Of a stretch of DNA of 64,000 nt, positions 29,585-33,821 are shown piece by piece. The notes below the pieces were generated by a model. The model saw nothing but the letters and a program-made list of their open reading frames with translations. It did no database searches and was not told the origin of the DNA. Made by a program: the position numbers and the translations under genes. The stretch lies in NCBI RefSeq assembly GCF_054482525.1, contig NZ_CM137006.1. One strand, given 5' to 3'. The stretch's first letter is position 1; every line of letters starts with the position of its first letter.

Positions 29585-30694
<1,110 letters not shown>

Positions 30695-30761
30695 TGGGCG
30701 GTATTCTGAAACGGCGATTGTCGTGAGAACAGAATGGTTGCACCAGAATACAGATATAAAA

Positions 30762-30790
30762 AAACCGACATGACAGTCGGTTTTTTTATT
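30762..30790 (+). terminator. rho-independent terminator after mnmH
   Basis: aaaaaccgacatgacagtcgg hairpin followed by tttttttatttttt. Confidence 0.7.
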
Positions 30791-31105
30791 TTTTCCGCCC
30801 AAGACTTGGTGGTTCCGGGCAGAAATGAAACAGTCCTCATCTAGCAAGTGAATTATAAGTCAGGATGCCTACATATTCAAACAGCTATGTTGGCGATACA
30901 ATCCCGACGCTAGTAGTGATACTGCCTCAAGGGATTACCGCAGTGCGGAAAAGTACTTTTAAGTCCTGGTCAGGATACAGGTGGTGCTGATTCTGGTGCT
31001 CTAATTTGGAGAGAGGCAGTCCTCATCTAGCACATGAAGAAAATCATAGTTACAGGCAACGTAAGGGTAAGCTGTGATTGTCTTTCTCCCTTAAGGGAGC
31101 AACGG

Positions 31106-31189
31106 ATGAAAACTTTTCTCGATAAAGTTCTCATCGTTCTTAAGGCGCTAATCGCGCTGCTGGAACTGATCCGTCAGTTTATTGAATAA
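31106..31189 (+). CDS. candidate 27-aa hydrophobic peptide (DinQ/TisB-like type I toxin?)
   Basis: atg preceded by agggag Shine-Dalgarno; encodes MKTFLDKVLIVLKALIALLELIRQFIE, a single amphipathic/hydrophobic helix; followed by a hairpin. Below the six-frame track length cutoff. Function inferred only from resemblance. Confidence 0.35.
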   Translation: MKTFLDKVLIVLKALIALLELIRQFIE

Positions 31190-31197
31190 CTGAGGAA

Positions 31198-31236
31198 ACG
31201 TAGCTAAGGCCGAAGGTTTACCACCTTCGGCCTTTA
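31198..31236. terminator. hairpin downstream of small ORF (possible bidirectional terminator)
   Basis: aaggccgaaggtttaccaccttcggcctt inverted repeat flanked by T-run on one side and A-run on the other. Confidence 0.5.
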
Positions 31237-31289
31237 AAAAAACCGACATGACAGTTGGTTTCATATTTATTGCCAAAATGCACACTGTT

Positions 31290-31390
31290 CATGCCAGATG
31301 CGGCGTAAACGCCTTATCCGGCCTACACAATCTTGCAAAATCAATATATTGCACGATCCTCGTAGGCCTGATAAGCGTAGCGCATCAGGC
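31290..31390. repeat. REP/BIME palindromic units
   Basis: gccagatgcggcgtaaacgccttatccggcctaca and gtaggcctgataagcgtagcgcatcaggc match REP consensus. Confidence 0.6.
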
Positions 31391-31406
31391 AATCTAACGC
31401 CTGTCA

Positions 31407-33821
31407 TCATCCCGCAAACTGCCTGAACAGCGCCTTACCCTTAACCAGTCGCGCACCCAGCCAGCCGCCGAAAAGCGACAGCAGCAGCGCACCGCTGCAC
31501 GGCAGCACAATCCACAATCGCCAGTCTGGCTCCCACGGGAAATCAAACACTTTCGCCTGCAACACTGCCAGCGCCGTTTCCGCACCAATTGCGGCTACCA
31601 GGCCAGAAACAAACCCAAGCATGGCGAACTCACACCACAATGTCGTGCGCAGCAGTTTTTTCCCCGCTCCGAGTGTGCGCCACACCACCAGCTCCTGATG
31701 ACGCTGACGCATTCCCACCTGCACCTGTGCCAGCAACAGCAACATACCGCAGGCGGTGACCAGCACCACCATCACTTCCAGCGCCCGACTTACCTGCTCC
31801 AGCACCTGGCCGACCTGTTTTAAAATCGCGCCAATATCTAACAGGCTAATTGTCGGGAACTGGCGGTTGAGTTGCGTCAACATGCCGTTGCCATTCTCCC
31901 AGCGGAAACTGGTAAGCCAACTCTGCGGTTGTCCGTCTAATGCCCCTTCAGGGAAAATAAAATAGAAATTAGGCCGCAGACTTTCCCAGTCCACTTTGCG
32001 AAGGCTGGTCACTTTAGCGCGGAACTCCTGGGTATCGCCCATAAAGGTGACTGTATCGCCGAGGCCAACGTTTAAGCGTTTCGCCAGCCCCTCTTCCATC
32101 GACACTTCATCGGCTTTTGGCGGCCAGTTACCGGCGACAATCGGATTATGATCGGGCCGCGTATTTTGCCAGGTAAGATTAAGTTCGCGATTGAGCGCCT
32201 CATCTTCATTGCCTTCTGTCGGCTTGCCGTTAATCGCCGTCAGTCTCGCCCGCACCACCGGATAAAATGATTCCGGGACTATCTGATGTTCCGCGAGGAA
32301 CGCTTTTAGCGGTGCTACCTGTTCTGTGGCGATGTTGATTAAAAAATAGTTCGGGCTTTCTGGCGGTAGCTGCTGTTGCCAGCGGTCGAGCAGATCACCA
32401 CGCAATACCAGCAACAGCGCCAGCAGCATAAAGGAGAGCGAAAATGCCGAAAGCTGGCTTAACGTTGACCACGGCTGACGTAACAGGCGGCTAACCGCCA
32501 GGCGCAGAGGCAGCGATTTCAGCGTCATGCGGCGAAGTACATTCAGCAGCATCCAGCCCAGCACACCGCACAGCAAAGCCAGTACTACCGCGCCCGCCAG
32601 CACCGCCCAAAGCAGCATGCTGCCACCCATTAATCCGGCGAGCAGCACCACAACCACCACACTGACAATCGGCAGATAAAACTTCAGCGGCCAGACGTTC
32701 GCTACCACATCATTACGTAATACGCGTAAAGGCTGCGTTGCCAGCAACAAGCGGTATGGTCGTAGCCCCACCAGCAGCGAGATAACCGTCATGGTGCCCA
32801 GCGCCCATAGCCACGGCCAGAGGCTGGCTGGCGGTAGTGCAGCAGGCAGAACGGGCTTGAGCAGCACCATCAACACGTTTTCGAACAACAGGCCTATCGC
32901 CCCGCCGGTAACGGCTGAAAGCGCCAGCACCATCAACCACTGACCGACGATTAGCTTACGCAGTTGCGCTCGCCCTGCCCCCAGCGTTTTGAGGATCGCC
33001 ACCAGATCGTAGCGACTGCGACAGTAATGATTCATCGCCACCGCCACCGCTGCCACTGCCAGCAGCAAGGTCAGAAGCGCCGAAAGCAGCAGGAACTGTT
33101 GCGAGCGTTCCATCGAGCGCCCCAGCGCGCCTTCGTCCTGTTCCAGACCGTACCAGCGTTGTTCGGGTTTAAGCTGGGGTAACAACCATTTCTCATAGCC
33201 GTCGAGCTGGTTCTCGTTGCCGCCGAATTTATAGCGCCAGGTGACCCGACTTCCCGGCTGCACGGCTCCGGTTTTATCGACATCCGCCAGATTCATCATC
33301 AGACGCGGAGCCATCTGGAAGGGGTTAAAACCGGAATCCGGTTCCTGAATCACTTCTCCGGCAATCCGCAAGGTGGCATCACCCACGTCGATGGTGTCGC
33401 CTGTTTTCAGGTTAAGCAGTGCCATCAGGCGTGGGGCCAGCAATACGCTGCCCGCCTGCGGTTTCAGGCCAGGGGGATTAGTTTGCAGATCGCCATACAT
33501 CGGGTAGATATCATCCACCGCTTTGACGTTCGCCAGCTGCGGTGTGTCGCCTGCAAATGTCATGGTGGCGAAAGTCAGCTGCTTGCCGACTTTCAGGCCG
33601 CGCTTTTGCGCTTCCTCCAGCCACGCTTGCGGCACTTCGCGCGAACTGCGCAACGCCCGATCGCCCGCCATAAACTCCCGGCTTTGCTGGCTTAAGCCCT
33701 TCTCCATGCGATCGCTGATATTGCCCAGCGCCAGCACGCAGGCCACCGCCAGGCTTAGCGCCAGCCAGACAATTAATAGCGACGGCGAGCGCCATTCGCG
33801 CCAGAACCAACGTGCAATCAT
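31407..33821 (-). CDS. ybbP: ABC transporter permease (FtsX-like, two-repeat)
   Basis: 804-aa polytopic ORF; 4-bp overlap with upstream ATPase gene ybbA. Confidence 0.9.
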   Translation of the reverse strand: MIARWFWREWRSPSLLIVWLALSLAVACVLALGNISDRMEKGLSQQSREFMAGDRALRSSREVPQAWLEEAQKRGLKVGKQLTFATMTFAGDTPQLANVKAVDDIYPMYGDLQTNPPGLKPQAGSVLLAPRLMALLNLKTGDTIDVGDATLRIAGEVIQEPDSGFNPFQMAPRLMMNLADVDKTGAVQPGSRVTWRYKFGGNENQLDGYEKWLLPQLKPEQRWYGLEQDEGALGRSMERSQQFLLLSALLTLLLAVAAVAVAMNHYCRSRYDLVAILKTLGAGRAQLRKLIVGQWLMVLALSAVTGGAIGLLFENVLMVLLKPVLPAALPPASLWPWLWALGTMTVISLLVGLRPYRLLLATQPLRVLRNDVVANVWPLKFYLPIVSVVVVVLLAGLMGGSMLLWAVLAGAVVLALLCGVLGWMLLNVLRRMTLKSLPLRLAVSRLLRQPWSTLSQLSAFSLSFMLLALLLVLRGDLLDRWQQQLPPESPNYFLINIATEQVAPLKAFLAEHQIVPESFYPVVRARLTAINGKPTEGNEDEALNRELNLTWQNTRPDHNPIVAGNWPPKADEVSMEEGLAKRLNVGLGDTVTFMGDTQEFRAKVTSLRKVDWESLRPNFYFIFPEGALDGQPQSWLTSFRWENGNGMLTQLNRQFPTISLLDIGAILKQVGQVLEQVSRALEVMVVLVTACGMLLLLAQVQVGMRQRHQELVVWRTLGAGKKLLRTTLWCEFAMLGFVSGLVAAIGAETALAVLQAKVFDFPWEPDWRLWIVLPCSGALLLSLFGGWLGARLVKGKALFRQFAG

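Follow-up and report, generated by a model that had tools for sequence, protein, structure and literature searches.

A probable DinQ/AgrB-type toxin-antitoxin module in the rhsD-free mnmH-ybbP spacer of Escherichia coli

The closest described relatives of the locus analysed here are the dinQ-agrAB system of Escherichia coli K-12 and the DqlB/AgrB system of plasmid pOXA-48. In K-12 the dinQ RNA that starts at +1 cannot be translated, its sequences 1 and 2 being paired with each other in stem S1 and its ribosome-binding site being held in a hairpin of sequences 3 and 4, while the processed RNA that starts at +44 forms a duplex of sequences 2 and 3 and is translated (PMC5066626, PMC3567139). The small RNA agrB binds the region of sequence 2 and re-closes the hairpin, and cleavage by RNase III follows (PMC5066626, PMC3567139). 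The toxicity of K-12 DinQ towards the membrane and its rescue by the small RNA have been demonstrated experimentally (PMC3567139), as have the toxicity of the DqlB/AgrB system of pOXA-48 and its rescue by compensatory mutations (PMC12365149). Further dinQ-like (dql) genes, dqlA and dqlB, have been named on chromosomes and plasmids of Enterobacteriaceae (Kristiansen 2016, PMC5066626), and a similarity between the untranslated regions of the zor and dinQ families has been reported (PMC11264685).

The window (the whole stretch of 64,000 nucleotides that was analysed) carries mnmH, for tRNA 2-selenouridine synthase, as a 364-aa ORF at 29600-30694 on the plus strand, and ybbP, for an ABC transporter permease, as an 804-aa ORF at 31407-33821 on the minus strand. 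Between them lies a spacer of 712 bp (30695-31406). A segment of 1,312 bp around this spacer is 100% identical to E. coli PCN033, whose RefSeq annotation is the source of the names mnmH and ybbP and also places between the two genes a small CDS named 'dinQ' (WP_001308457.1). A preliminary description of this DNA had stated that rhsD lies between these genes in K-12 and had remarked on its absence here, and it was right on both counts: the gap in K-12 BW25113 measures 7,301 bp and contains ylbG, RHS fragments, ybbC and rhsD. The REP units, hairpins and small ORF that it had placed in a gap of about 710 bp are likewise all present; the hairpins and the ORF were listed there separately, and their unity as parts of one module was not recognised.

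We propose that the spacer very probably consists of an ancestral Escherichia mnmH-ybbP region containing REP sequences, together with a type I toxin-antitoxin module of 568 bp that belongs to the DinQ/AgrB (dinQ-like, Dql) family, and that rhsD was never present in this haplotype.

The AgrB-like RNA, the toxin gene and their predicted pairing

An AgrB-like antisense RNA, the putative antitoxin, is encoded on the minus strand at 30756-30845 and aligns with both agrA and agrB of K-12. The Rfam model RF02891 (AgrB) is matched over its full length at 30756-30844 on that strand, with a score of 53.6 bits (gathering threshold 40, E = 1.5e-7). Also on the minus strand, at 30852-30880, is the predicted sigma-70 promoter of this RNA, TTGAAT-17 nt-TATAAT, which agrees with the consensus at 10 of 12 positions and is the sole promoter-like site in 30600-31500; the start that it predicts, near 30845, agrees with the 5' end of the Rfam match. 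An AgrB-family RNA is thus found upstream of the toxin gene, divergent from it and not overlapping with it. The hairpin at 30756-30789 has a stem of 14 bp and a T-run on either strand, is terminator-like in both directions, and probably ends the transcription of mnmH as well. Terminator-like sites numbered four, against 1.1 expected from shuffled sequences.

The toxin gene is a 27-aa ORF of the DinQ family, MKTFLDKVLIVLKALIALLELIRQFIE, at 31106-31189 on the plus strand (NCBIfam NF041472; RefSeq WP_001308457.1). The NF041472 (toxin_DinQ) model, with a cutoff of 30 bits, gives 40.9 bits for this ORF and 38.4 bits for a 51-aa version of it (31034-31189) that results from the start chosen by PGAP. 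The score against the DqlB model NF041473 is 24.5 bits, below the cutoff of 35, which places the peptide outside the DqlB subfamily. A Pfam scan of the peptide returned no match, and the same copy of the library returned none for K-12 DinQ. The sequence GGGAG stands 6 nt upstream of the ATG of the 27-aa ORF, whereas the 51-aa version is without such a ribosome-binding site; and conservation in homologues is limited to the 27-aa core, the N-terminal half of the longer version being unconserved. On both grounds the true toxin is likelier to be the 27-aa product than the 51-aa one.

The toxin mRNA is predicted to start at G30909, downstream of a dinQ-like -10 sequence TACAAT at 30897-30902; on the plus strand these elements (30897-30909) align with the -10 sequence TATGAT and the +1 of K-12 dinQ. 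The putative promoter has a poor -35 and failed a consensus scan. A search of the spacer for a LexA box found neither CTG-N10-CAG nor a match to at least 13 of the 20 consensus positions, while the same scan finds TACTGTATGATTATCCAGTT in K-12. This leaves the 'damage-inducible' of the RefSeq product name unsupported for this copy, and the name is probably wrong for the gene between mnmH and ybbP.

Downstream of the ORF, an inverted repeat with a 12-bp GC-rich stem at 31206-31234 on the plus strand would form the terminator hairpin of the toxin mRNA; K-12 dinQ and relatives have homologous stems in their terminators. Inserted into the tail of this terminator is D1b (31235-31274, plus strand), a further, degenerate version of the hairpin that terminates the AgrB-like RNA, which parts the terminator stem from its T-tract. 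D1b is a 40-nt direct repeat of 30757-30796 with 83% identity, the hairpin itself occupying 31240-31261; its 26-nt core occurs twice in the window, where 0 occurrences are expected, and no equivalent was found at the same position in four related loci.

The predicted target of the AgrB-like RNA lies in the toxin 5'UTR at 31008-31031 on the plus strand, corresponding to sequence 2 of dinQ, and includes a 16-nt exact repeat shared with the small RNA gene. This 16-mer, CAGTCCTCATCTAGCA, is present at 30831-30846 and at 31017-31032, two occurrences in the 64-kb window against 0.01 expected; since the small RNA is read from the opposite strand, the direct repeat in the DNA makes its 5' end complementary to the toxin 5'UTR. 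The two RNAs can form 19 contiguous base pairs including G-U, and with G-U pairs 23 of 24 positions are matched. Duplex energies were calculated from the 34-nt 5' ends of the small RNAs against 50-nt target windows; duplexes of whole-length small RNA and mRNA computed with RNAduplex were set aside, having inflated energies and huge interior loops. The K-12 locus was labelled with agrB at 458-541 and agrA at 689-772, on the basis of the 30/31 versus 25/31 complementarity given in PMC3567139. Among five loci each small RNA 5' end favours its own target, cognate helices being of 19-23 bp and non-cognate ones of at most 15 bp. The window duplex, at -40 kcal/mol, involves the best partner available among the five, but none of the other four cognate pairs is as weak, their energies ranging from -46 to -58 kcal/mol.

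When the full-length RNA from 30909 is folded to minimum free energy, the 5' arm of the S1 'lock' stem (30909-30928, plus strand; sequence 1 of dinQ) pairs with 31012-31031, the stem beginning at nucleotide 1, and the hairpin CUCCC-UUAA-GGGAG also forms. This Shine-Dalgarno hairpin (31086-31099) and the counterpart of sequence 3 (31080-31089) occupy 31080-31099 on the plus strand; the hairpin is an inverted repeat, and both elements recur in all eight homologous loci. When the RNA is truncated to begin at 30958, the target region switches to 31080-31089, giving a 2:3 duplex of -21.4 kcal/mol; in the minimum-free-energy fold of this truncated RNA the ribosome-binding site is still paired, with an upstream segment. 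Three of the eight loci are on dqlB plasmids; the others are those of the window, of K-12, of a Yersiniaceae chromosome and of two Salmonella mobile elements, one of them an ICE. The 5-bp base of S1 is kept in all eight, as are the 2:3 duplex, the hairpin at the ribosome-binding site and the long S1 duplex, whose energies lie between -23 and -32 kcal/mol. Conservation of pairs was scored sequence by sequence; automatic alignment of the 5'UTRs mis-registers the columns of the ribosome-binding-site hairpin. The base of S1 in the window, GCUAG/CUAGC, differs from that of the seven homologues by a compensatory change from U-A to C-G, and the 2:3 duplex in the window carries a compensatory change from U-A to A-U. 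All parts of the 5'UTR switch, namely the 1:2 lock S1, the 2:3 duplex and the 3:4 hairpin, are therefore found in silico. As judged from sequence comparison and predicted folding, membership of the DinQ/AgrB family is well supported, and so is a shared mode of control.

From homology, folding and the conserved, covarying elements, we infer that the module would act in the following way. A strong constitutive promoter would give rise to a leftward AgrB-like small RNA of about 90 nt, and a weaker, LexA-independent one to a rightward mRNA of about 330-360 nt. The full-length mRNA would remain untranslated, its 5' end locking the target region in S1 and the CUCCC/GGGAG hairpin masking the ribosome-binding site. 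Processing at the 5' end would allow the target to pair with sequence upstream of the ribosome-binding site, so exposing that site and permitting synthesis of a hydrophobic membrane peptide of 27 aa. The 5' end of the small RNA, through 19-24 bp, would compete for the target, with re-closure of the hairpin and, probably, cleavage by RNase III.

A probable 568-bp insertion and the states of the site

Relative to truly empty alleles the module is an indel of 568 bp (30709-31276), missing from E. albertii, whose site has the empty form, and from E. coli A26, N12 and AF3. Six E. coli alleles that lack an island were aligned to give an allele series. Empty-type spacers measured 58 bp (A26), 140 bp (N12) and 240 bp (AF3), and in each of them, as in E. 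albertii and in the 584 empty E. coli genomes counted below, the junction between mnmH and the REPs reads ATTCT followed directly by GTGCAC; the 568 bases of the window sit exactly between these two motifs. What follows on the ybbP side (31277-31406) is a backbone of ancestral type, found in empty alleles of E. coli as well as in E. albertii, which consists of TGCACACTGTTCA and a REP, an IHF-like core and an inverted REP. The inverted REP pair, at 31291-31326 and 31362-31391, flanks a core that, by eye, we take to resemble the IHF consensus, and the Rfam model ES036 matches 31327-31369 with 40.3 bits (threshold 37.6). With inverted palindromes around such a core, and repeats of it throughout the genome, 31291-31391 is a REP/BIME element of the RIP type; on account of the REPs, the 1,312-bp query matches an E. 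coli genome at a median of 30 places.

Other alleles in the series add to or subtract from this arrangement. The spacer of IZSBS22, at 913 bp, has two additional REPs. The O169:H41 allele carries an internal deletion of 108 bp (window 31018-31125) between AGTYCTCATC microhomologies, which takes out most of the small RNA target, the ribosome-binding site and the start codon, and leaves no ORF. In SCPM-O-B-8794, a divergent E. coli lineage, both ends of the module are kept around a single hybrid hairpin; as D1b lies within what in relatives is the tail of the toxin terminator, this solo-hairpin allele is best explained as a deletion between the direct hairpin copies D1a and D1b. It had no match in complete genomes, in a search whose sensitivity is limited by the 86-nt, low-complexity query.

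Inspection of the module ends by eye revealed neither terminal inverted repeats nor target-site duplications, and the empty junction offers no repeat that could mediate precise loss. Genes for related peptides are carried by a Salmonella ICE and by another, integrase-bearing Salmonella element, with an AgrB match at each, which fits a horizontal origin. It might be supposed that the module is ancestral in E. coli and that the empty, RhsD and Hcp-ET haplotypes were derived from it by loss or replacement. It does occur in two GTDB-distinct Escherichia lineages, intact in Escherichia sp. E1V33 and as the derivative with both ends in SCPM-O-B-8794, and internal deletions such as the 108-bp one do arise. 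Yet E. albertii is empty, precise loss has no repeat to act upon, and the relatives are on mobile elements; moreover the E1V33 module is 99.5% identical to that of the window where mnmH is 94.9% and ybbP 97.2% identical, so that the module is about 10-fold less diverged between lineages than its flanks, which recent spread fits better than ancient residence. We consider the ancestral module unlikely. The polarity adopted here, drawn from parsimony and one close outgroup, is that of an insertion into an empty backbone, and it forms part of an explanation in which, taken as a whole, we place considerable confidence.

Complete E. coli genomes, 5,426 in all, were surveyed with junction-specific queries at the mnmH end. 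The K-12-type RhsD junction was found in 2,908 genomes (54%), the DinQ-like/AgrB-like module in 1,314-1,324, the truly empty junction in 584, and a DUF2931/Hcp-ET (tssD) island, as in ST131, in 574. These four junction states together cover 5,390 of the genomes (99%), which makes good the suggestion in the preliminary description that the site could serve as a strain marker. In 1,317 genomes the mnmH-spacer-ybbP query is covered over 80% or more of its length, from which it follows that the module and the large islands essentially never occur together. The module was matched at an identity of at least 99% in 1,315 records, and every sampled genome that bears it has two matching places, the second being the canonical dinQ, about 70% identical. 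Elsewhere in the genus, E. whittamii and Escherichia sp. MOD1-EC7003 have the Hcp-ET/DUF2931 type at the site. Outside Escherichia the convergent order of mnmH and ybbP is preserved; in Citrobacter and Kosakonia the two are separated by a MetNIQ-type transporter and one further gene, and in several Buttiauxella the gap is just 66-215 bp.

The 108-bp deletion of the toxin start is present in at least 138 module-bearing genomes, which have kept the small RNA; the toxin is therefore dispensable, and perhaps counter-selected. Such alleles bear on whether the locus is a decaying relic, homologous to dinQ/agrB but with a toxin-antitoxin pair that no longer works. The toxin promoter is weak, the antisense pairing is shorter and weaker than that of relatives, and D1b disrupts the terminator, all of which would suit decay. 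On the other side, the ORF and its ribosome-binding site are intact, as are the promoter elements and every pairing element, the pairings have been maintained by compensatory changes, and a full-length allele at least 99% identical is carried by about 1,180 genomes. A relic therefore seems improbable to us, and a working dinQ-like module is preferred.

Still less likely is a plain ancestral site, predating the arrival of rhsD elsewhere and without cargo of its own. The backbone next to ybbP, TGCACACTGTTCA and the REP pair, is indeed that of empty E. coli and E. albertii, and across Enterobacteriaceae the convergent pair of mnmH and ybbP is kept in synteny; but 568 of the 712 bp are missing in E. 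albertii and in the 584 empty E. coli genomes, and those 568 bp encode recognisable members of the AgrB and DinQ families. As to rhsD itself, the longest ORFs of the spacer (30695-31406) are of 51 aa at most, with no Rhs core ORF among them, and sensitive blastn against four islands, the 7.3-kb one of K-12, that of ST131 and two more, found no Rhs remnant, the best match being of 13 nt (E = 0.4), which is at chance level. In K-12 the element substitutes for the entire intergenic region, REPs included, with breakpoints 2-6 nt from both stop codons. Rhs elements have been gained and lost in E. coli, and 54% of genomes have RhsD at this site, but a deletion scar, left when a former rhsD element was excised, is scarcely credible, as nothing beyond that chance match to the K-12 island remains and excision of an element that had removed the REPs would not have restored a backbone common to E. 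albertii. Nor did any fragment of the Rhs core, of ylbG or of an AT-rich leader come to light in this spacer or in sister strains. The preliminary description had offered an ancestral empty site or a deletion scar, and the 568 extra bases relative to empty alleles, with no Rhs remnant, speak for neither; the alignment of the spacer to genomes with and without rhsD, which it had proposed, bears out the absence of rhsD while failing to support a plain empty site or a scar.

Relation to described systems

If the preferred explanation is correct, an apparently 'empty' Rhs site actually holds a second toxin-antitoxin system of the DinQ family, and a natural pair of DinQ paralogues, differently regulated, would be present within one cell. 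For typing, the four-state marker sorts 99% of complete E. coli genomes, and the alleles that have lost the toxin and retained the antitoxin are useful for asking why chromosomal type I toxin-antitoxin systems persist. More speculatively, the mnmH-ybbP gap may be a hotspot for toxin cargo, where RhsD, Hcp-ET/DUF2931 T6SS effector islands and an SOS-independent, orthogonal DinQ paralogue are mutually exclusive, and a horizontal sweep may have carried the module into about a quarter of E. coli, either because it stabilises or protects the site or because it brings about a DNA-damage-independent membrane depolarisation distinct from that of dinQ; we regard this as possible, though doubtful.

The RhsD element (rhsD-ybbC-ylbH-ybbD-ylbG) occupies the identical intergenic site and its cargo, too, encodes a toxin, but it is 7.3 kb in length, the toxin is an Rhs polymorphic toxin, and there is no sequence similarity to the window spacer. 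The zorO-orzO system of E. coli O157:H7 also has a divergent, non-overlapping small RNA, which pairs with a long toxin 5'UTR that needs processing before translation; yet the hairpin region of the window gives only a weak match to the Rfam OrzO-P model, far under the gathering threshold (24 bits against 60), and the window peptide matches DinQ and not ZorO, so that the similarity reported between the zor and dinQ untranslated regions is not taken to make the locus a member of the zor family.

The window module and dinQ-agrAB of K-12 each encode a hydrophobic peptide of 27 aa, with ...IVL.ALIALLELIR. in common, and a divergent, non-overlapping RNA of the AgrB family that pairs through its 5' end with the 5'UTR of the toxin. 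Both have the S1 lock, the alternative 2:3 duplex and the hairpin over the ribosome-binding site, and the alignment of the two spans promoter, UTR, ORF and terminator, with about 70% DNA identity over UTR and ORF. The two differ in that K-12 dinQ lies between arsR and gor with agrA and agrB in tandem, whereas the window copy lies between mnmH and ybbP with a single Agr gene. K-12 dinQ has a LexA operator and the window copy has none, so that the latter is not the SOS-regulated dinQ proper. The peptides end differently, in ...RQFIE in the window and in ...RFLLQLLN in K-12 DinQ, and antisense pairing extends over 19-24 bp with G-U in the window against 30/31 in K-12. K-12 agrB pairs poorly with the window target, in a helix of just 7 bp, which suggests that the window module and canonical dinQ/agrB are probably orthogonal in strains that have both.

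With Dql/DqlB-AgrB the window module shares family, architecture and independence of the SOS response, and DqlB peptides have in common with the window peptide the C-terminal motif LELIRQFI[DE]. They are, however, 31-32 aa long, with an extra internal segment, against 27 aa in the window, and DqlB-AgrB is plasmid-borne (pOXA-48) whereas the window locus has one fixed place on the chromosome. It may be one of the 14 dql sequences of Kristiansen 2016, probably 'dqlA'; in the literature, no paper among the matches listed mentions dinQ alongside ybbP, mnmH, selU or ybbB. The locus is of a known kind, combining an Rhs presence/absence polymorphism with a DinQ-family system already in RefSeq, and current understanding of Rhs elements and of type I toxin-antitoxin systems is unchanged by it; to this it would add a complete DinQ paralogue, probably SOS-independent and orthogonal to dinQ, together with a marker of four states and a set of natural toxin-deleted alleles.

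Extent and divergence of the toxin gene

The PGAP coding sequence at window 31034-31189 specifies 51 amino acids, with the family-profile match and the conservation both confined to the last 27 of these, and a ribosome-binding site is located 5' of the inner ATG at 31106. The annotated CDS probably over-extends the toxin gene. Some E. coli peptides (database proteins P0026 and P0019) are chimeras that combine the N-terminus MKTFLDKVLIVLKALIALLELIR of the mnmH-ybbP paralogue with the C-terminus FLLQLLN of canonical DinQ, and their composition suggests recombination between the two chromosomal dinQ paralogues.

Comparison of the module (window 30709-31276) with its counterpart in Escherichia sp. 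E1V33 (L012 3249-3816) revealed differences at only 3 of 568 positions, against 56 of 1,095 in mnmH and 67 of 2,415 in ybbP. Judged from these alignments, such low divergence would reflect either recent spread of the module via recombination or unusually strong constraint.

Deletion alleles and the additional terminator hairpin

In at least 138 genomes a 108-bp deletion, corresponding to window 31018-31125 (in compared locus L003, at about position 923), has eliminated the toxin start along with its ribosome-binding site and the region targeted by the sRNA; the AgrB-like gene and its promoter are kept. Microhomology is the route of this deletion. The PGAP label 'dinQ' persists on some of the deleted alleles.

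The sRNA terminator hairpin recurs as a degenerate copy at window 31235-31274, inserted after the toxin terminator stem and ahead of that terminator's T-tract; four related loci lack it at the equivalent position. This copy supplies a direct repeat through which the module can be lost in its entirety, as in the solo-hairpin allele of strain SCPM-O-B-8794 (L011). REP copy number at the site also differs among strains (L007 700-900 versus window 31290), with spacers of 58, 140, 240, 712 and 913 bp, and this variation is independent of the toxin-antitoxin module.

Other occupants of the mnmH-ybbP interval

In E. coli ST131 MNCRE44 (L008 9832-13834) and in E. whittamii (L013 1140-4467), the site houses an island encoding an extended Hcp (tssD) of 667 amino acids together with two or three DUF2931 genes, and the final codons of mnmH are exchanged for other sequence. 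The ST131-type junction is common to 574 complete genomes. Given this island, toxin cargo is present in three of the four site states. Separately, a contig of 4 kb assigned by binning to 'uncultured Alistipes sp.' (L046, CASFSC010000074.1) carries an E. coli mnmH (98% amino acid identity) fused to a K-12-type ylbG/Rhs junction, and almost certainly represents E. coli DNA placed in the wrong bin.

The equivalent interval in Citrobacter, Kosakonia and Superficieibacter (L016 11092-14992 and similar loci) encodes a 377-amino-acid protein without a Pfam match, and a MetNIQ-type ABC transporter (ABC_tran+NIL, BPD_transp_1 and NlpA); not every member of the family, therefore, has a short mnmH-ybbP spacer.
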